Shown here: one piece after another, positions 4,206 to 12,410 of the stretch
Layout of the letters: every line of letters starts with the position of its first letter
How positions within the stretch are numbered: position 1 is the stretch's first letter
DNA from: a virus
Taxonomy: Duplodnaviria > Heunggongvirae > Uroviricota > Caudoviricetes
Length of the DNA: 36,980 nucleotides
Direction: 5' to 3' (one strand)
Virus record (IMG/VR): IMGVR_UViG_2713896902_000002
Location: 1 to 36,980 of that record
The notes under the pieces: model-generated
Told to the model about the DNA's origin: nothing
Database searches by the model: none
The model's input: the letters and a program-made list of their open reading frames with translations, nothing else
Translations under genes and position numbers: made by a program

Positions 4206-7028
4206 GTGGCAACGGAGTACATCAGAGACTGGCAACAACCACGCCATGCAGTCGGTCGCGAGGGGACGGGGGAGCCTGTCCGTCCCTCCCTTCTTTCTTC
4301 CTGGCTGGATGCCTACCGGGCAGAGAACGAGCGCCGCCAGGAAATGGCTGATGCGGCGTTCTCTGCCGCACCGCTGGGCAATCTGATTAATAAAAGCCTG
4401 GACGCACAGGAAAAACAGGACAAAGCCATCACACTGGCAAGAGAAGCCAGAAAACAGGCACGCGGCGCGGTGGATGAAGCAATTGCCGCACTACGTCTGC
4501 TGCCGTCCTATCTGCGTGATCCGCTTATCCGCCATCTCTCTTTCCTGCGCAAAAAACAGGAATCCGATCGTCAGAAAGGCAAAAAGAGCTGGCAGGCTGA
4601 ACGCTACGCGCGCGGAACCCTGCGCAAAATATTCGAACGTCTGGAGCGCACCGACAGACGCTGGCTGACACCGGGTTATCGCTCCCTTGCCGGGCGTGAA
4701 CGCCTGGATGATTTACTTTACCTGCCGCAACTCAACAAACACCAGATACAGACGCTGGCCGTCATGACAGCGGCGATGTTCAGCAGCACCTTCGAAAAAC
4801 TCTGCGATGACTTTGGCGCGACCGATGGCGAGCTGACCATGGATATAACGCTGAAGGCGTATCAGATGCTGGCCCGCATGGCGTTACATCTGCACACAGT
4901 GCCGCCGCATTATGACGCACTGACAACAGACAAAGACCGGAAGAACGAACCGGACACGGAGCTGCTGCCGGGTGCAATCCTCCGCCTGACCTGTGCGGAC
5001 TGGTGGAAACGCAAATTGTGGCTTTTACGTTGCGAATGGAGAGAGGAACAACTCCGCGCTGCCTGTCTGGTTTCCAGAAAAACATCGCCCTATCTGAGTC
5101 AGGAGGCATTAAGTGAATTTCGCGCACAGCGCGAGAAAACACGCGATTTCCTGAAAAGTTTCATGCTGGAAAATGAAGACGGGTTCACGATTGATCTCGA
5201 GACGGTGTATTACGCGGGAGTAAGTAACCCGGTCCACCGTAAGGCAGAAATGATGGCCACCATGAAGGGACTGGAACTTCTGGCCGAAGCCCGTGGCGAC
5301 AGAGCGGTATTTCTGACCGTTACCTGTCCGTCAAAATATCACGCAACAACGGAGAACGGTCATCCGAATCCCAAATGGAACGGCGCCACCATGCGCGATT
5401 CCAGCGATTACCTGGTTAACACTTTTTTTAAGGCGGTCCGCAAAAAACTGAATCGCGACGGCCTGCGCTGGTATGGCATCCGCACGGTGGAGCCACACCA
5501 TGACGGCACCGTGCACTGGCACATGATGGTCTTTGCACATCCTGAAGAAATCGACAGCATCGTGGACATCACCCGTGATATTGCCATTCGCGAAGACCGC
5601 CACGAGCTGGGCAATGACATAACTCCGCGCTTTAAGGCAGAGTACGTCGACGGTTCGAAAGGTACGCCGACCAGCTACATCGCCACCTACATCGGAAAGA
5701 ACCTGGACAGCCGCGCCGTGGATGGCATTGACCCGAAAACAGGCAAGCCACGCGTTGATCACGAAACCGGAAAATCAATGGCCGAGAGCGTGGAACGCGC
5801 CATCGGCTGGGCGCGCCTTCACCGCGTCCGCCAGTTCCAGTTCTTTGGTATCCCCTCCCGTCAGGTATGGCGTGAACTCCGCCGCCTTGCCAGTCAGATG
5901 GCCCGCAACCCGGAAGGTCCACAACGTCTGGAAAATGACGCAATGGATGCGGTACTCGCTGCCGCTGATGCCGGGTGTTTTGCCACCTACATTGAGAAAC
6001 AGGGTGGCGTACTTGTTCCACGCAAGGATTACCTGATTCGCACCGCCTACGACCTCGCAGAAGAGCTGAACGATTACGGCGAGCAAAGCGTACAGATTTA
6101 CGGGATCTGGTCGCCACAAATCGGGGAATCTTCCCGCGTGTGCACGCACCCGGATAACTGGAAGCTGGTAAGACGTAAACCGGAAGCGGAAGACAGCGCC
6201 AACGAAAATGGTTTTGACCTTCAGGGCGGCCCTGCCGCCCCTTGGACTCGTGGCAATAACTGTCCCCGTGTACAGGAAACGAACAACAACGGGACAGAAC
6301 AGCCGGAAGAACGGCCAGCACCGTGGCCGCAGCTCCCTGATGGCGTTGAAGTGAACGAATGGATGCGCTCACTGAAACGGCACGAACGCCGGGCGCTGAT
6401 GCGTTCGCTTCGTGACAAACAGGCAAAAAACAGCAGTGATGAAATGCAGAGCTGGACACAGAGCCGCAAACAGCAGCGGCCTTTGCCTGATAACCACGAA
6501 TTACTCGCTAAAGAATGGCGGGAATCTGCCGAATCTCTCGGCCTGCATATCGGTGAACAGCAGATGCAGCACCTGTTACGGGGCGGCAGCCTGTACGTTG
6601 ACGGCAGCATCATTGCACCGCAGGGATTTGAAATTGTACGCAAACCGGATACCCGCCCGGACAGCCGAATCACGCAGCTCTGGCAGCGCCTGAGCCGTAA
6701 TCACGGCGTAAGCAGCACAGAGATCCGCCATAACCCGGTCGCCAGCTATCTGGAACAACTGGGGGCATCAGACCCCGAAGCCGCCGCACGTCTGGCATCC
6801 ACACTTCAGCAGGACCAGAACACCATGAAAACCCCCGTTACCGTGTTTTCTGACATGCTGCGCGCCATCCGTGACGCAGAGCACGCACAGAGAATCAGTG
6901 AAACCACTGAACGCGCCCACCGCAAAGCAGACCTGCTGCGGGGTAGCCTGACCAGTGGAAACAAAAAACAGACAGAAACGGGACTCACAAATCCCGTAAA
7001 TGAGCAAAAAACGCGCCGCGATATATGA
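4206..7028 (+). CDS. A: P2 gpA-family rolling-circle replication initiator (HUH endonuclease), GTG start, extended C-terminus
   Basis: 940-aa ORF; HUH motif in GTVHWHMMVF and tyrosine-containing YIATYIGKN; position after early genes as in P2. Confidence 0.88.
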   Translation: MATEYIRDWQQPRHAVGREGTGEPVRPSLLSSWLDAYRAENERRQEMADAAFSAAPLGNLINKSLDAQEKQDKAITLAREARKQARGAVDEAIAALRLLPSYLRDPLIRHLSFLRKKQESDRQKGKKSWQAERYARGTLRKIFERLERTDRRWLTPGYRSLAGRERLDDLLYLPQLNKHQIQTLAVMTAAMFSSTFEKLCDDFGATDGELTMDITLKAYQMLARMALHLHTVPPHYDALTTDKDRKNEPDTELLPGAILRLTCADWWKRKLWLLRCEWREEQLRAACLVSRKTSPYLSQEALSEFRAQREKTRDFLKSFMLENEDGFTIDLETVYYAGVSNPVHRKAEMMATMKGLELLAEARGDRAVFLTVTCPSKYHATTENGHPNPKWNGATMRDSSDYLVNTFFKAVRKKLNRDGLRWYGIRTVEPHHDGTVHWHMMVFAHPEEIDSIVDITRDIAIREDRHELGNDITPRFKAEYVDGSKGTPTSYIATYIGKNLDSRAVDGIDPKTGKPRVDHETGKSMAESVERAIGWARLHRVRQFQFFGIPSRQVWRELRRLASQMARNPEGPQRLENDAMDAVLAAADAGCFATYIEKQGGVLVPRKDYLIRTAYDLAEELNDYGEQSVQIYGIWSPQIGESSRVCTHPDNWKLVRRKPEAEDSANENGFDLQGGPAAPWTRGNNCPRVQETNNNGTEQPEERPAPWPQLPDGVEVNEWMRSLKRHERRALMRSLRDKQAKNSSDEMQSWTQSRKQQRPLPDNHELLAKEWRESAESLGLHIGEQQMQHLLRGGSLYVDGSIIAPQGFEIVRKPDTRPDSRITQLWQRLSRNHGVSSTEIRHNPVASYLEQLGASDPEAAARLASTLQQDQNTMKTPVTVFSDMLRAIRDAEHAQRISETTERAHRKADLLRGSLTSGNKKQTETGLTNPVNEQKTRRDI

Positions 7029-7073
7029 AGCGCGCACAAAACAGGCAAAAGCGGGATTTAAAAATCCTGTAAC
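6979..7073. repeat. two imperfect 22-bp repeats, each an internal dyad (cgggactcacaaatcccgtaaa / cgggatttaaaaatcctgtaac), upstream of parM
   Basis: Seen at 6979..7000 and 7052..7073, about 73 bp apart, spanning the end of A and the parM leader; candidate ParR operator/centromere. Confidence 0.3.
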
Positions 7074-7104
7074 CGATTAATTAATCAACATAAGGAAAAG
7101 CTAC

Positions 7105-8064
7105 ATGAAAATTTGTATCGACGACGGCTCCACCAACATCAAGCTGGCATGGACTGAGAACGGCGAACGCAGCAACGCCATCAGCCCGAACAGCTTCAAG
7201 TCGGAATGGTCTGCGCCGTTCGGTGGCACGCAGCCCGCGAACTACATGCTTGATGGCGTGCGCTATGGTTTTGATCCGGTCAGCGATCGCTTTGTCCAGA
7301 CGACCGACACGCAATACCAGTACAGCGATGTGAATGTAATCGCCATTCACCACGCGCTGGTCAAATCAGGCATCACACCACAGGAAGTGGATGTGGTTGT
7401 CACCCTGCCACTGAGCGAATATTTCGACACAAACGCACAGCCGGACATGGCCAACATCAACCGCAAAAAAGCGAACGTTATGCGCCCGGTGGAGTACCAG
7501 AACGGCAAAGCATTCACTATCCGTAACGTACGGGTTATGCCTGAATCCATTCCGGCTGGCTTTAAAGCACTGGCTGACATGAGTCCGTTTGAATCCCTGC
7601 TGATTGTGGATTTAGGCGGAACCACGCTGGATGTGGCAAAGGTTCAGGGACAACTGGCAGGTATCAGCCAGGTGTTTTGCGATCCACACGTAGGCGTTTC
7701 CCTGATGGCCGATGCCGTACTGTCGGTGATGGCCACTAACGGTATGCGTACCAGCCACCACATCGCCAATACCATTATCGAACATCGCCATGATGAAGCC
7801 TGGCTGCGCCAGCACATCCACAATGACGCGCATTACGACAACCTGATGGCGGTTATTCGTGAAAAGGAAGAAACACTGAAACAACGCGTGATCCGCGCGC
7901 TGGCGGTTTTTTCGGGTTACGGGCGGGTGATGGTTGTCGGTGGAGGGGCGGAGATTGTGGCACCCGCTATCCGCAAAGCCTGCGGAGTTAATGCGACTTT
8001 CATCGCGGACGGGGTGCCACAGTATGCTCTGGTTAATGGGCTGTACGCAATGGACAAGGAGTAA
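7105..8064 (+). CDS. parM: ParM/StbA-family actin-like segregation ATPase
   Basis: MKICIDDGSTNIKLAW...YQYSDVNVIAIHHAL...VMPESIPAGF...LIVDLGGTTLDV...VMVVGGGAEI tracks remembered plasmid R1 ParM (MLVFIDDGSTNIKLQW...WQYSDVNVVAVHHAL...VMPESIPAGY...LIIDLGGTTLDI...VMVIGGGAEI). Confidence 0.85.
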   Translation: MKICIDDGSTNIKLAWTENGERSNAISPNSFKSEWSAPFGGTQPANYMLDGVRYGFDPVSDRFVQTTDTQYQYSDVNVIAIHHALVKSGITPQEVDVVVTLPLSEYFDTNAQPDMANINRKKANVMRPVEYQNGKAFTIRNVRVMPESIPAGFKALADMSPFESLLIVDLGGTTLDVAKVQGQLAGISQVFCDPHVGVSLMADAVLSVMATNGMRTSHHIANTIIEHRHDEAWLRQHIHNDAHYDNLMAVIREKEETLKQRVIRALAVFSGYGRVMVVGGGAEIVAPAIRKACGVNATFIADGVPQYALVNGLYAMDKE

Positions 8065-8068
8065 ACCA

Positions 8069-8380
8069 ATGACGACACCAACCAGACGGATAAGTTTCTA
8101 TCTGAAGCCTGCGGCCGTCAAGAACGAAAGCGAAGCATGCGCCTGGCTGGACAGCCTTACACCAGAAGCCCGCAAAAGCGGCCAACGCGTGGCTTTTCTG
8201 GCCGGGCTGGCACTTCTGAAAATGGATCCAGCAGAGGCTTACCGACTGGCTGCATGGGCTGACGATGAGGCGTTATCTGTGACACAAACCAGGACAGAAC
8301 GCCCCGTGTCACAGCCAGTACCAACCGCACAGATAACCAGTCAGATGGCCGGAAATATCCGGGCGCTATTTCCTGAGTAA
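8069..8380 (+). CDS. parR: ParR-like ribbon-helix-helix centromere-binding protein
   Basis: RBS caaggag then ATG 8069; RRISFYLKPAAVKNE...LDSLTPEARKSGQRVAFLAGLALLKMDP...IRALFPE resembles remembered R1 ParR (RRTIAFKLNPDVNQ...LDSIPQGERSRLNRAALTAGLALYRQDP...LRSLFPKE). Confidence 0.7.
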   Translation: MTTPTRRISFYLKPAAVKNESEACAWLDSLTPEARKSGQRVAFLAGLALLKMDPAEAYRLAAWADDEALSVTQTRTERPVSQPVPTAQITSQMAGNIRALFPE

Positions 8381-8386
8381 GCAGAG

Positions 8387-8407
8387 CCAGGGCGGAAACC
8401 GCCCTGG
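8387..8407 (+). terminator. perfect stem-loop ccagggcgg-aaa-ccgccctgg after parR (no T-tract)
   Basis: 9-bp perfect stem directly after parR stop; no U-run, so intrinsic terminator function uncertain. Confidence 0.35.
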
Positions 8408-8561
8408 ATGTAATCAGCAGAGAGTGTGAACCCACACCACATCACGCTCCATGAAATTTGCATAATTTAACTATGATTTTTGCAACTCTCCATTCATAAT
8501 GTTAGTAATAATTAACCAATCTAAACCCATAAGAGCCACCATTGTTAAATTCAGGTGACGT

Positions 8562-9707
8562 ATGAACATTCAACAGCGTATAGCAGAACGCTTGGTTCAG
8601 GCCAGAAACGACGCAGGAATGAGTGCAAGCGCCGTCGCAGATGCGATCGGTGTTGTTCGTCAAACCTACAGTAAGTTTGAGCAGGCGCTAGGCGTCCCAA
8701 GCGTTACCCAACTCATCATGCTCTGCAAGATTTTCGATAAGCCTATCGGGTATTTTTATGAGCAAGATGATGGCGAGTTTCGTTTTGCAATGCGAGCAGA
8801 TAGTCCGGATTTGTTGGATGCCAAACTTCGCAATGAGTTGATTGAAAAGTTAAAAAATATCAATGCAATTGAGGAAGCTGCTGATGCTAATTTGCCAGAA
8901 GATCTTCCTAACTCAATGCCTATTTTTACCGCCAAAGCAGAAGATTTGCGAAGAGTCGAAGATAAGGCTATGGAAGAACGTTTCCGTCTTGGTATAGGAA
9001 ACGCTACTTGCGTTGGTGACATTGTAGCCATTTTGGAAGCATCGGATATTCGAGTAATCCCGTTCAATCGCGAAGAAACCGATAAAGGGATGGTATTCGG
9101 ATTTTCTGCGTTTTCGAACAAATACGGTACCGCGATTTATGTAAATGTTCACGATAGCATTTCAATAGAACGTCAAATCTTCAGTATTTGCCATGAATAT
9201 GCTCATCTTATCTTCCACCGTGATGAGTATGATGGCCCTGCTAAAAGCTATAAAACCAATGGCAAAGCAATTTCACCGGAAGAAAAAGTTGCTAATCACT
9301 TTGCTGCTTGTTTTTTGGTACCAGAAAGCGCATTGCGAAAACAATTCGTCATGCAAGGTGGTGGATGGGCGTATGAGGAAACCGTCCTTAGACTAAAAAG
9401 CATTTTCAGAGTATCAGCCACTTGCATCATCGATCGTCTTAGTAAATGTAATTTAATTAATCAACAAAACACTAGATACCTATGGGCAACCGCCAATCGT
9501 AAAGGTTGGAAGAGACACGAGCCAAATCCCATTAGGGAAGCACTAAATTATAAAGGCCGCCTAACCGTCTTATCGCGTAAAGCATGGGAAGCCGGTTCCG
9601 CGTCGGAAACCTTCATATCTGAACTTTTAGAATTAGACAGAAAAGCTCTCAGCAATCTTCTGGATGAATGGTACGACGAACAGGAGGCCGGAGAGGATGC
9701 CGTTTGA
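8562..9707 (+). CDS. Xre-family HTH fused to ImmA/IrrE-type (M78-like, COG2856) zinc metallopeptidase
   Basis: N-terminal HTH (MNIQQRIAERLVQARNDAGMSASAVADAIGVVRQTYSKFEQALGVPSVTQL); HEXXH in SICHEYAHLIFH; AT-rich upstream region, RBS aggtga; visibly AT-richer than flanking phage genes. Confidence 0.8.
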   Translation: MNIQQRIAERLVQARNDAGMSASAVADAIGVVRQTYSKFEQALGVPSVTQLIMLCKIFDKPIGYFYEQDDGEFRFAMRADSPDLLDAKLRNELIEKLKNINAIEEAADANLPEDLPNSMPIFTAKAEDLRRVEDKAMEERFRLGIGNATCVGDIVAILEASDIRVIPFNREETDKGMVFGFSAFSNKYGTAIYVNVHDSISIERQIFSICHEYAHLIFHRDEYDGPAKSYKTNGKAISPEEKVANHFAACFLVPESALRKQFVMQGGGWAYEETVLRLKSIFRVSATCIIDRLSKCNLINQQNTRYLWATANRKGWKRHEPNPIREALNYKGRLTVLSRKAWEAGSASETFISELLELDRKALSNLLDEWYDEQEAGEDAV

Positions 9708-10215
9708 ATGCCCCAGATGTGTTATCGATACGAATGTACTGTCTGATTTTTACGAAGGTAAATGCTTAGATCTTATCTGGCAAATTTACCCGGGTGGTGT
9801 GTGGATTGACCCCTATGTCTGCGAGGAACTAAAAGCTAAATACAATCTTGATGTTCAGGAACAGCTTACACGCCTGCAACTTCCATACAATTTCACCAAT
9901 GATTACGAACCTGAACATTTTATTGAAATGGCTGAGATAAAAAATCGCAGGAGAGCATTGAAGTATGCGGACATAAGCTGCGTTGTTAACGCGAGAATAC
10001 ATGATGCAACATGTCTTTCGGCGGATAATGCGGTTTATAAAACGTGTGCGGAACGCGGTGTAAAAGCCGCCCGCCACGGAGGGCTACTTCAAGAGGCTGT
10101 GCGCAGGAGACTTATCCACAAACAACAAGCCTTAATGCATTTCCAATTTTTCCTAGATCGTGGGTTAACGATGAAATCTTCTGTTCGAGAACAGATTCTT
10201 GCCAGTTTCGAATGA
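9697..10215 (+). CDS. PIN-like domain nuclease (predicted effector/toxin); alternative start 9664
   Basis: Start overlaps end of the HTH-peptidase gene (RBS caggagg); N-terminal VIDTNVL strand with Asp, later ADISCVVNARIHDATCLSADNAVY fitting the PIN D..IAA.A...L.T.D pattern. Confidence 0.55.
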   Translation: MPFECPRCVIDTNVLSDFYEGKCLDLIWQIYPGGVWIDPYVCEELKAKYNLDVQEQLTRLQLPYNFTNDYEPEHFIEMAEIKNRRRALKYADISCVVNARIHDATCLSADNAVYKTCAERGVKAARHGGLLQEAVRRRLIHKQQALMHFQFFLDRGLTMKSSVREQILASFE

Positions 10216-10248
10216 ATCCAAATCTCTCTTGCCATATTGGATTATATT

Positions 10249-10274
10249 GAGCCGCAATAGCGGCTCTTTTTTTT
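10249..10274 (+). terminator. rho-independent terminator (gagccgcaatagcggctc + T8)
   Basis: Hairpin followed by tttttttt directly after the PIN-like gene stop. Confidence 0.75.
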
Positions 10275-10290
10275 GTTTATTTATAACAAG

Positions 10291-10324
10291 TGCGCAATGC
10301 ACAATTGTGCACAAATTTGCACAA
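10291..10324. repeat. TGCACAA direct-repeat array at 10-bp phasing with embedded perfect palindrome TGCACAATTGTGCA
   Basis: tgcgcaa tgcacaattgtgcacaaatttgcacaa: heptamer at 10298, 10308, 10318 plus variant at 10291; palindrome 10298..10311. Confidence 0.5.
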
Positions 10325-10697
10325 TTTTTTTGAACGACTTTTTACCCTTCCAGCCCGCATGGTGGCTGGTTCCGTCAAGGATCCGTGCGTGCACAAAAAA
10401 AACGCATTTTTTCTGCGCGCAGGTGACGGGGGAACAGCCCGCGTTTCAGGGGGTAAATAGCATTCCCCGAACGATGTCGCAGAGACACAACAGAATGGCT
10501 GTATTTCTCACGCTGAGCATGAAAAAACGTGAGGGCTTTTGATTTGATGGGGTGACAGATAAGGCCGTCAGAATCGCACTGAGGCGGCGAGAACATGCAG
10601 TCAACACGGTAGGATTGCGTAAGAGCCTGACCGTCGATGATGGCAATAAGCTGGAAGACGTCGTGAAATTATTTGATTGATACAGGAGCTGGAGAGT

Positions 10698-10740
10698 CGG
10701 GGCATAAATTTTTTATGCCCCGGCGAGGCAGCAGACAAGC
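10698..10740. other. candidate cos region: 11-bp-stem hairpin followed by GGCGAGGC... 19-mer
   Basis: cggggcataaa-ttt-tttatgccccg hairpin, then ggcgaggcagcagacaagc whose first 8 nt match remembered P2/186 cohesive ends (GGCGAGGCGGGGAAAGCAC); located between hotspot and Q as in P2. Confidence 0.3.
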
Positions 10741-10824
10741 GAAGCGCGTCAGTGATACAGCACCTTGCCGACCATCATTCATGGGCGCAAAATACACACA
10801 AAGGAAATCAATGGAGGCTGTCTT

Positions 10825-11349
10825 ATGGTCATTAATTACAAGCAGTTAAGAGAAAAACGAGATCAGGTAAAGGAGAGTTTTCGCCGCAATGAAGACCTGA
10901 CCCCGCTTGTACGCATTGCCCAGGGAATTGTTGATGCTTATGAAATCTCGCTGGAGCTGCCATCACAGACCTGGACAGATAGCGACGGTAATCGCCAGCA
11001 TTACGTTTCATGCGGACTGGAAACAGCAGAAGGGTTTCGCAGAATGCCTTTATCCCAGATTCCTGCCGCTACCCCCAAAGCAAGAGGCAGCAATGATGAG
11101 CGAAAACTGACTTTCAGTATTGAAACAGTTGTTGACGACACACCTGGCGAAGTCGCATTCGTGCTCACTCCCCTTTCGATCACAATGTATAACGATGAAA
11201 TACAGGTTCGCGTTAATAATAATATCGTGCCACTTAAAGAAGGTAATTCCCCCTACACCACCGTTTGTGAAGCGATTCAATATTACGTTCTCTCTGAAAT
11301 TGATAATCTCAGACCTGACGGCACCCGGAAAATGGTTCAACTCTGGTAA
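10825..11349 (+). CDS. hypothetical protein (moron between candidate cos and portal gene); ORF extends to 10765
   Basis: RBS ggagg before ATG 10825; ORF convergent with Q and ending at a bidirectional terminator; no recognisable motifs. Confidence 0.5.
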   Translation: MVINYKQLREKRDQVKESFRRNEDLTPLVRIAQGIVDAYEISLELPSQTWTDSDGNRQHYVSCGLETAEGFRRMPLSQIPAATPKARGSNDERKLTFSIETVVDDTPGEVAFVLTPLSITMYNDEIQVRVNNNIVPLKEGNSPYTTVCEAIQYYVLSEIDNLRPDGTRKMVQLW

Positions 11350-11355
11350 AAAGGA

Positions 11356-11380
11356 CAGCCCCATCACGGGGCTGTTTTTT
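11356..11380 (+). terminator. bidirectional rho-independent terminator (cagcccc-atcac-ggggctg + T6)
   Basis: Hairpin flanked by A-run upstream and T-run downstream; overlaps the last codons of Q. Confidence 0.7.
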
Positions 11381-12410
11381 CATCAAGCAGTGCGTAAGGG
11401 TTAAAGCGGATCACCTCTTCGCCAAGCCAGTCATTGATGTGCTTCATGGCCTCCATGACGGGCATCAGCTCGTTAATTGCGTAAACCCGCGCAGCCTTCT
11501 CCACATCACCAAACGCACTTTTTTCGCCCGGCATCGCCCCCATCAGTTGCGGCGGAACGCGGTGCGCAGCCAGCACATCATCACGGGACGCCGCCTTAAC
11601 ATTCATGAACTCATCCTTTGCGGTGATCTGCTGGAACGGCAAAATTTGCACACCTTCTTTACCCCCGTTGGGCGCATGAATGAGCACGTTTTTAAACGCA
11701 CCACCACCACGCGCACCCTGTAGCGTTTCTTTCAGGGAGTCCATGCTTTCGCGGTCTACCCGTGCTGCACCGATGTAGACGATGCACCCGGCGTGGGATC
11801 CATTGTCGTAATACAGCTTTCTGAACGCGTCCGCCGAATGAGACAGGCTGGCCGAGAGTAATGCGCCGAGATATTCCGGCATGCCGTAGATTTCCTGGTT
11901 AATATCCGGGTTCATCAGGTGGCACACTTTGCCAGGGCGAAACTGAAACGCATCCTTGCCATCCTGCACATACCACCACGATTCGAGATCGCTTCCGCGG
12001 CGCATGTATTTCGCCAGTGCGTGTCGTAATTTCAGCGGTTCGCCGAGCATATTGCTTCGAAGTTCAAGGAATGCGTTACCGAACACAAACCAGTCCAGCG
12101 CCAGCGCCGAGAAATCCTGCCGGGAAAGCAGCGGGTGCGGGATATAGCAACCGAGCAATACATTGCGCTTAAAGTAAAGCGCAGACTGATGCCAGGACGT
12201 TTGCCGGGCAGCTCTTGCCAGACCGTACCAGTCCACCGGGGTTTCATACCACCGACCGTTATCGGCACAGTACATATTGTCCAGCAGGTCATGCCCGGTC
12301 AGGCGATAAGGACCATCAAATGTGAACGCGCTGAGCGACGATTCTTTCCTGAGCGCATCAGCGAGATCAATGCGTGAACTCATGCGCACTTTTTTATTTT
12401 TTCTGCTCAT
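11364..12410 (-). CDS. Q: portal protein (P2 gpQ family)
   Basis: 348-aa ORF at the P2 portal position, leftward, downstream of P; typical length. Confidence 0.85.
   Translation of the reverse strand: MSRKNKKVRMSSRIDLADALRKESSLSAFTFDGPYRLTGHDLLDNMYCADNGRWYETPVDWYGLARAARQTSWHQSALYFKRNVLLGCYIPHPLLSRQDFSALALDWFVFGNAFLELRSNMLGEPLKLRHALAKYMRRGSDLESWWYVQDGKDAFQFRPGKVCHLMNPDINQEIYGMPEYLGALLSASLSHSADAFRKLYYDNGSHAGCIVYIGAARVDRESMDSLKETLQGARGGGAFKNVLIHAPNGGKEGVQILPFQQITAKDEFMNVKAASRDDVLAAHRVPPQLMGAMPGEKSAFGDVEKAARVYAINELMPVMEAMKHINDWLGEEVIRFNPYALLDEKTAP

Follow-up and report, generated by a model that had tools for sequence, protein, structure and literature searches.

We describe here a two-gene cassette in the IMG/VR virus record IMGVR_UViG_2713896902_000002 (Caudoviricetes), of which positions 1 to 36,980 were analysed; this whole stretch of 36,980 nucleotides is called the window below. 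The window is a P2-like prophage, and the cassette lies between the gene of a gpA-type replication endonuclease and the portal gene. It consists of two open reading frames, ORF1 for a predicted helix-turn-helix (HTH) protein fused to a zinc peptidase and ORF2 for a predicted PIN-fold nuclease, together with the regulatory elements around them. The features of the cassette are as follows.

8407-10294: variable cargo slot of the gpA-portal hotspot, 1.9 kb, with boundaries taken from blastn
8495-8500, plus strand: -10-like hexamer CATAAT, a putative promoter element without a good -35
8500-8516, plus strand: palindrome TGTTA-N8-TAAC abutting CATAAT, a putative operator for the HTH of ORF1
8543-8547, plus strand: extra TGTTA half-site
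8553-8558, plus strand: Shine-Dalgarno sequence AGGTGA for ORF1, read from the sequence and lying at an invariant GGTGAC block in the locus comparison
8562-9707, plus strand: ORF1, 381 residues, Xre-type HTH and ImmA/IrrE M78 peptidase, RmrA-like
9192-9206, plus strand: HEYAH zinc-binding and catalytic motif, residues 211-215 of ORF1 (H211, E212, H215)
9282-9284, plus strand: E241, predicted third zinc ligand of ORF1
9682-9687, plus strand: Shine-Dalgarno sequence AGGAGG for ORF2, within the end of ORF1
9697-10215, plus strand: ORF2, 172 residues, PIN/VapC-fold nuclease with a C-terminal helical extension
9727-9729, 9823-9825, 9970-9972 and 10024-10026, plus strand: acidic residues D11, E43, D92 and D110 of ORF2
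10249-10274, plus strand: intrinsic terminator GAGCCGC-AATA-GCGGCTC followed by T8, with a 7-bp GC-rich stem and a 4-nt loop

From its sequence, ORF1 is predicted to be an Xre-type HTH domain (residues 1-66) fused through a helical linker to an ImmA/IrrE zinc peptidase of family M78 (residues ~150-300), with a further helical domain at the C-terminus (residues 300-381). An earlier reading of the window, made from the sequence alone and called the sequence-only reading below, had noticed a 381-residue protein with an N-terminal HTH and the motif HEYAH at this place. The profile searches bear this out: Pfam HTH_3 is matched at residues 13-65 (E-value 3e-8) and Peptidase_M78 at residues 193-293 (1.5e-11), both with scores above the gathering cut-off. 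The hallmark of the M78 family, HEXXH with a downstream Glu in E-x-x-A-N-x-F-A, is also present. In an alignment of 34 homologues with identities down to 25%, H211, E212 and E241 do not vary, and at least 90% of the sequences keep H215; in the second motif, A244 and F247 are invariant, and K242, N245 and A248 each reach at least 90%. Since the zinc-binding and catalytic residues are conserved to this degree, the peptidase site is under maintaining selection, and the active-site residues of the window's copy are intact.

Other collections place ORF1 in the same neighbourhood. Among the PADLOC models, 15 RmrA models match it, the best with an E-value of 2.8e-35 over residues 4-321 of 381, and the capP model matches with an E-value of 3e-15. 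PHROG 2439 is matched at 2e-45, the PHROG families concerned being described as 'transcriptional regulator', and the NCBIfam model 'spr1629 family repressor/antitoxin' gives an E-value of 2.7e-24, which is below its cut-off. The AlphaFold2 model (predicted local distance difference test, pLDDT, 85.7) consists of the HTH, a partly flexible linker, the peptidase domain and the C-terminal helical domain, the last comprising about 80 conserved residues. When the model was compared by Foldseek, the peptidase domain matched IrrE (3dti, 3dte, 8slm) and CapP (7t5t), and the N-terminal HTH superposed on P22 c2, C.BclI and SinR. A sequence search of the PDB returned for ORF1 a single weak match, 9vzy, an unannotated HTH protein on which no paper turned up in our literature search.

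The start of ORF2 needs some care. The mechanical open reading frame begins at ATG 9664 and has 183 residues, while the supported start is ATG 9697, giving 172 residues (MPFECPRCVIDTNVL). We regard ATG 9697 as the best start because it is used by RefSeq and its annotation pipeline PGAP, because the extra N-terminus of the longer frame is seen in none of the 17 aligned homologues, which all start with MPF or further downstream, and because AGGAGG lies at 9682-9687. With ORF2 starting at 9697, the two reading frames overlap by 11 nt (9697-9707). The sequence-only reading, which let the stop of ORF1 overlap the start of a protein of roughly 173 residues, needs a small correction here, as more than the stop codon is shared.

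ORF2 carries the motifs VIDTNVL and ADISCVVNARIHDATCLSADN, which had been pointed out as PIN hallmarks, and it matches the Pfam PIN model PF01850 with 24.9 bits (E-value 3.3e-5) against a gathering cut-off of 23.6 bits. The AlphaFold2 model has a PIN fold with a pLDDT of 93.5 and a predicted TM-score (pTM) of 0.87, and its top Foldseek matches in the PDB, which comprise VapC/PIN toxins as well as RNase P enzymes of the PIN type, have a probability of 1.00 and TM-scores of 0.57-0.65 on the target. In the ORF2 family (18 homologues, down to 56% identity), D11, E43, E44, D92 and D110 are invariant. The canonical PIN motifs hhDTNhh, D-x-h-h-A-A-x-A-like and h-h-S/T-x-D hold these invariant acidic residues, and we take the four positions, at the end of strand 1 (hhDTNhh), in helix 3, in the D-I-S-C-V-V-N-A helix and in S-A-D after strand 4, to be the canonical places of the PIN quartet. 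By sequence and structural model, ORF2 is thus predicted to have a PIN nuclease fold with its four-residue acidic site intact. Outside the PIN core fold it has a helical C-terminal extension of about 45 residues (127-172).

The clade to which ORF2 belongs is small, as a full scan of 1.84 billion cluster representatives gave 9 matches at E<=0.001, which are clusters at 50% identity. Its placing among the PIN subfamilies depends on the source. The precomputed Pfam annotation assigns most homologues to PF11848 (DUF3368), and Rousset et al. label the family DUF4411/PIN (PMC9122126). When we ran hmmscan on 18 members of the ORF2 family, neither PF11848 nor PF14367 (DUF4411) appeared at E<=1 and only PF01850 was returned, so that the precomputed match to PF11848 was not reproduced. 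A weak but full-length match was found to the PADLOC model PDC-S70, a single-gene PIN candidate (E-value 1.4e-4 for ORF2; 12 of the 18 family members matched weakly, the best at 2.3e-6), and PDC-S70 is itself an unvalidated candidate (PMC12988326). No family of NCBIfam or PHROGs was matched by ORF2, and its profile gave a chance match only against the PDB sequences.

ORF1 and ORF2 form one coupled operon with a conserved upstream palindrome and a terminator of its own. The junction GATGCCNTT, which codes for D-A-x-stop in ORF1 and M-P-F in ORF2, is conserved throughout, and in the enterobacterial loci CAGGAGG is kept 9-10 nt 5' of the ATG of the PIN gene. The terminator, described before as clean, lies 34 nt past the stop of ORF2, just within the cassette boundary. 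On the upstream side, the -10-like hexamer is kept as ATAAT or ATACT in five loci with unrelated upstream flanks. The palindrome TGTTA-N8-TAAC has one match in the 37-kb window, where 0.12 would be expected, and it is found equally positioned 5' of the ORF1 homologues in loci L001, L006 and L007 of our comparison, and with one mismatch in L005. As both elements are kept across unrelated flanks, a promoter belonging to the cassette is plausible, though it is not a consensus match; the AT-rich promoter proposed in the sequence-only reading is to be qualified accordingly.

The base composition bears out what was already noted from the sequence, namely that the pair is richer in AT than the surrounding phage genes: the module has a GC content of 0.433, while gpA reaches 0.564, the portal and terminase genes 0.539 and the window outside the module 0.523, and the 1654-bp sliding window with the lowest GC of the whole sequence starts at 8701, inside the module. 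An Rfam scan of 8300-11400 gave sub-threshold chance matches only, with no sign of an RNA antitoxin or regulator. Three antisense open reading frames within the module (8756-9121, 8913-9152 and 9829-10077, minus strand) were set aside as unsupported, mechanical frames in AT-rich DNA.

The position of the cassette was examined by blastn against sister P2-like prophages that share the parM-stbB backbone. Homology extends to 8406 and resumes at 10295 or 10299, and what lies between differs: some sister prophages have an unrelated 135-aa gene, and others a ClpX-zinc-finger gene with Phd/Doc. For example, E. coli CB6837 has in the same slot (L012:1695-2948) a gene for a ClpX C4-type zinc-finger protein beside a Phd/Doc toxin-antitoxin pair. 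With a Klebsiella P2-like prophage, DNA homology at the level of the cassette is limited to 8496-10273. Because the backbone flanks are shared and the slot contents differ, the module is a discrete 1.9-kb cargo of the gpA-portal hotspot, in accordance with the placing proposed from the sequence. This slot is a documented defence hotspot (PMC9122126, PMC9519451).

The cassette was found in 32 of 5426 complete E. coli genomes, at 33 places, all of them chromosomal and none on a plasmid, while DNA matching a backbone-spanning query (7050-11400) is present in 1434 of the 5426, nearly always on the chromosome. The phage therefore does not need the cassette, as only 32 of the 1434 backbone-matching genomes have it. 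About 27 of the 32 retain an intact parM-stbB pair upstream, and in one cassette-bearing genome parM and stbB are cut down to short remnants. A megablast search of the cassette against the phage GenBank collection gave no match.

Beyond E. coli, the pairing of the two genes is stable even as the surroundings change. In 10 of 10 contexts examined the two genes are adjacent, with both proteins going down to ~38-41% identity, and the reading frames overlap in all contexts except L004, where an earlier stop of ORF1 leaves a 4-nt gap. The two genes are thus kept together, and the overlap, the conserved junction and the Shine-Dalgarno sequence internal to ORF1 indicate that they are coupled in translation. 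The contexts fall into several kinds. The pair occurs in P2-like hotspots of E. coli, Pantoea, Klebsiella and Yersinia, the last three having prophages with the cassette and without parM-stbB. It also occurs at chromosomal sites amid housekeeping genes in Enterobacter cloacae, Rahnella and one further isolate, the E. cloacae site having a cation-efflux-family gene on one side and a two-component pair of the CpxA type on the other. More distant pairs, with both proteins ~38-41% identical to those of the window, are found on a phage-like metagenomic contig and in Lamprobacter, where the pair stands beside an MmeI-type restriction gene and another toxin-antitoxin-like pair. The cassette is mobile as a whole, among phages as well as chromosomal sites, and since the pair also occurs at non-phage chromosomal sites, ORF1 is tied to the PIN gene and not to the phage.

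This last point disposes of the idea that ORF1 serves the prophage, or another mobile element next to it, as immunity repressor or anti-repressor, with the PIN gene as an unrelated neighbour: HTH-M78 proteins and ImmR/ImmA pairs do control lysogeny or excision in many elements (PMC2701414) and ORF1 does match PHROG families of transcriptional regulators, but with the two overlapping frames co-occurring at non-phage chromosomal sites and in unrelated phages, and the cassette present in so few of the genomes that carry the backbone, this explanation is effectively excluded.

Decayed copies give some further information. In a Yersinia enterocolitica P2-like prophage (L013:3319-4563), an IS3-family element (HTH_Tnp_1 and rve) interrupts the PIN gene after residue 106; residues 107-138 are lost, the break falling just before D110, and ORF1 is intact. 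In a decayed copy from Erwinia, the PIN gene has lost the codons of residues 1-135 and ORF1 carries a frameshift. Among the loci examined, which are a small sample, no broken ORF1 was seen next to an intact PIN gene. Within the limits of that small sample, the asymmetry is what would be expected if the PIN protein is a toxin, as the PIN gene was found broken beside an intact ORF1 and the reverse was not.

Comparison with the literature shows that both the kind and the instance are known, as the module belongs to a well-known class and has itself been catalogued before. Table S5B of Rousset et al. 2022 (Cell Host Microbe, PMC9122126) lists it as P2-hotspot system 53, 'Peptidase_M78/HTH_31 | DUF4411/PIN', with 77 occurrences among 18,150 P2 loci and with no comment or function given. 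The proteins of system 53 are the same two, each one residue off the window's copy, and they lie in the same gpA-portal hotspot, usually after StbA/Plasmid_stab_B. The architecture is older still. According to Makarova et al. 2009, genes for Xre-COG2856 fusions often share an operon with the gene of a PIN or RelE toxin, above all in phages and prophages, and a three-component toxin-antitoxin system was proposed there (PMC2701414); Matelska et al. 2017 found the COG2405/DUF3368, DUF4411 and PIN_14/20/26 clades co-transcribed with HTH-DUF955 (PMC5499597). In both cases a fused HTH-DUF955/COG2856 gene lies 5' of a PIN-like gene, as in the cassette; those operons are computational predictions without a tested example, and the PIN clade of the cassette is a small one. 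In NetFlax (2023), the ImmA hub antitoxin node pairs with PIN-like domains in the Rosmer zone (PMC10440598), and this paper was the only one returned by our literature search for an experimentally tested ImmA and PIN pair. The novelty implied by the sequence-only reading, which did not recognise the pairing as a named system, therefore falls away: the architecture was described in 2009, 2017 and 2023, and the exact pair is system 53. In RefSeq, the first gene is named 'helix-turn-helix domain-containing protein' or 'ImmA/IrrE family metallo-endopeptidase' and the second 'PIN domain-containing protein'. As it stands, the cassette is one more catalogued cargo of a well-known prophage defence hotspot, with a value for annotation and no surprise for specialists.

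Other systems share parts of the module. ORF1 resembles RmrA of RosmerTA in its N-terminal Xre HTH and ImmA-type zinc peptidase and in its matches to the RmrA profiles. On the other hand, the validated RmrT toxins have other folds, examples being the RmrT of Gordonia phage Kita, which depolarises membranes, and RipA, which targets the sliding clamp; and in the cassette the gene of the predicted antitoxin comes first. PADLOC would not call the cassette RosmerTA, because ORF2 and its relatives match no RmrT model. ORF2, in turn, resembles the toxin of VapBC, having a VapC-type PIN fold, the canonical acidic quartet and VapC toxins as its best structural matches. VapB has a DNA-binding domain of the RHH, AbrB, Phd or HTH kind and a C-terminal toxin-binding tail. 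The partner in the cassette, however, is a 381-aa HTH-M78 protein and not a small VapB (~70-100 aa), and ORF2 has the extra 45-residue helical extension at its C-terminus. The pairs ImmR/ImmA (ICEBs1), DdrO/IrrE (Deinococcus) and CapH/CapP (of the anti-phage system CBASS) share with ORF1 the M78 fold, the HEXXH+E site and the association with an Xre HTH; in these the HTH protein and the protease are separate and the output is the regulation of an element, a regulon or CBASS, whereas ORF1 unites the two in one polypeptide, which is linked to a single nuclease gene downstream. No second HTH gene that could be a separate repressor substrate was found in the cassette. Finally, an Xre-ImmA/IrrE peptidase fusion also occurs in PD-lambda-2, which acts against phages in E. 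coli (Vassallo et al. 2022, PMC9519451), but this system has three genes, including a HigB-like partner and a P4-antitoxin-like protein, and its Xre-peptidase is the toxic component.

From the above, we consider it probable that the cassette is a Rosmer-like three-domain type II toxin-antitoxin or abortive-infection module carried as cargo of the P2-like gpA-portal hotspot. By analogy with related systems, the PIN protein is most likely an RNase toxin, and ORF1 its autorepressor and neutraliser and possibly also a sensor. We also counted for this reading the presence of a classical toxin-antitoxin pair, Phd/Doc, in the same slot of other P2-like prophages. Precedents for antitoxins that combine an HTH and a zinc peptidase are Vmi470 (PMC4671572), RmrA (Millman et al. 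2022 preprint; PMC10440598) and RipB/Spr1629 (PMC12795458). The sequence-only reading had arrived at a toxin-antitoxin or abortive-infection system in which the peptidase controls a PIN RNase; its reading of the sequence was right, and its interpretation is supported wherever it could be tested computationally. Two findings that would have told against it were looked for and did not turn up: ORF2 does have the PIN fold and the acidic site, and ORF1, which accompanies the PIN gene to sites outside phages, is not the repressor of the neighbouring element.

In the mechanism that we propose, the HTH of ORF1 would bind the TGTTA-N8-TAAC palindrome and repress the operon, while ORF1 would also keep the nuclease from acting, whether it binds the PIN protein directly or causes it to be turned over. 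The most plausible triggers are DNA damage and infection by another phage. ORF1 would then be inactivated, perhaps by M78-dependent self-cleavage in the flexible linker, where the flexible segments at residues 66-80 and 108-125 are candidate sites. The PIN RNase, presumably Mg2+-dependent, would thereby be released or over-expressed, and it would cut cellular and phage RNA, so that growth and phage replication stop. ImmA, IrrE and CapP cleave their HTH partners. According to the summaries given in two papers, the target of ImmA is the HTH repressor ImmR (PMC10440598, PMC2701414).

Several points weigh against this reading. The consensus scan of the plus strand found no sigma-70 promoter 5' of ORF1, and at E<=1 no model of RmrT, the Rosmer toxin, was matched by ORF2 or by the 18 members of its family. 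The sequences of the pair, catalogued in Table S5B of Rousset et al., are absent from Table S2, their table of cloned and tested systems. Among the related systems, the Xre-peptidase of PD-lambda-2 is itself toxic (PMC9519451), a related module of E. coli E101 made ClpP essential (bioRxiv 2020.05.25.114553), and the action of RipB in Streptococcus pneumoniae is ClpX-dependent (PMC12795458). On account of these three findings, a simple picture of a labile antitoxin should not be assumed.

More tentatively, we propose for this small PIN clade, always coupled to one RmrA-like HTH-M78 lineage, a specific form of abortive infection, in which the peptidase senses a phage and cleaves its own linker, and this one cut both derepresses the operon and frees the nuclease; we would not yet bet on it. 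If it is true, RosmerTA would gain its first characterised branch with a nuclease effector, and the cassette would be a tractable system in which to study how ImmA-type proteases sense infection. If phage defence is shown in any form, the Rosmer/ImmA family would acquire a PIN nuclease as an effector, and the cassette would provide a compact E. coli model for how an HTH-fused M78 peptidase is activated and by which mode it neutralises (binding, proteolysis or control of transcription).

Other explanations of the pair were weighed. It may be, although we think it unlikely, that the nuclease is gated by transcription in the manner of CapH/CapP, ImmR/ImmA or DdrO/IrrE, where ORF1 would only repress, without ever binding the PIN protein, and a signal of damage or infection would lead through M78 self-cleavage to the induction of the PIN protein to a toxic level. 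The structural likeness of the peptidase domain to IrrE and CapP, together with the capP match, fits this explanation, as does the conserved palindrome abutting the -10-like element, and the invariant active site of ORF1 argues that proteolysis matters. However, the conserved 80-residue helical domain at the C-terminus of ORF1 would be left without a role, and neutralising pairs are typically the ones that show such tight translational coupling with an unvarying 1:1 order of the genes. Related HTH-peptidase proteins, moreover, neutralise toxins in trans (PMC4671572, PMC12795458). Gating by transcription and neutralisation of the toxin are not mutually exclusive.

It appears distinctly unlikely to us that the cassette is a purely selfish module of addiction or stabilisation, which would play no part against phages and only retain itself and a prophage that has parM-stbB and might persist as a plasmid. 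The cassette directly follows parM-stbB, a neighbour that is kept in ~27 of the 32 E. coli genomes, and Rousset et al. suggest that partition genes may permit maintenance as a plasmid (PMC9122126); the cassette is also found alone amid housekeeping genes, like selfish toxin-antitoxin modules. Nevertheless, the explanation is weakened because all 33 E. coli copies are chromosomal and because the P2-like prophages of Pantoea, Klebsiella and Yersinia have the cassette without parM-stbB, and the documented role of the slot in defence also speaks against it. Addiction and defence are not exclusive of each other.

The polarity of the pair could also be reversed, with a toxic Xre-peptidase restrained by the PIN-fold protein, which we regard as very improbable. 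The precedent is PD-lambda-2 (PD-lambda-2B), where the Xre-peptidase is toxic and growth is rescued by the HigB-like partner (PMC9519451), and COG2856 was first listed as a predicted toxin by Makarova et al. 2009 (PMC2701414). In the cassette, however, the four invariant acidic residues of the PIN protein point to an active nuclease rather than a scaffold, in cases of natural decay it is the PIN gene that was found destroyed with ORF1 intact, and ORF1 resembles the RmrA antitoxins.

Apart from the cassette, the following genes were located on the two sides of the slot. The terminase gene, on the minus strand, was assigned by its position beside the portal gene and by the RefSeq annotation of a homologous locus.

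4206-7028: gpA-type replication endonuclease, PHROG 91
7105-8380: parM (StbA_N/ParM, E-value 1e-81) and an stbB/ParR-like gene (Plasmid_stab_B, E-value 2e-24), between gpA and the cargo slot
10765-11349: open reading frame of PHROG 5091 (E-value 6e-65), between the cargo slot and the portal gene
11364-12410, minus strand: portal gene, TIGR01540

The open reading frame of PHROG 5091 is annotated in sister prophages as a 174-aa hypothetical protein. It is missing from the 26-27 E. coli prophages that have the cassette in common with the window, where the homology ends at ~10756.

Some minor observations were made in and around the slot. The neighbourhood of the ClpX zinc-finger gene and Phd/Doc in the sister prophages is perhaps notable given the ClpX/ClpP dependence of some Rosmer-type modules. 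Just 3' of stbB, at 8387-8407, there is a perfect 9-bp GC-rich hairpin, CCAGGGCGG-AAA-CCGCCCTGG, without a T-run, which coincides with the left boundary of the slot, where the backbone homology ends at 8406. In the intergenic backbone on the other side, an imperfect 15-nt inverted repeat (TGCGTGCACAAAAAA / TTTTTTCTGCGCGCA) at 10386-10421 scored as terminator-like on the minus strand. A perfect 11-bp inverted repeat (CGGGGCATAAA/TTTATGCCCCG) at 10698-10722 is followed by GGCGAGGC. The latter (~10722) is similar to the initial 8 nt of the cos 19-mer of P2/P4 and was considered as the P2 cos site, a candidate that was dropped because a search of the whole window for the 19-mer, with up to 3 mismatches allowed, gave nothing. 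Directly past the right boundary of the slot (10295), at 10298-10326, three copies of TGCACAA(T/A)T, which also form overlapping palindromes, are arranged with an exact 10-bp spacing in backbone that is shared with prophages of other cargo. The three copies may bind a protein or serve as an anchor for recombination.

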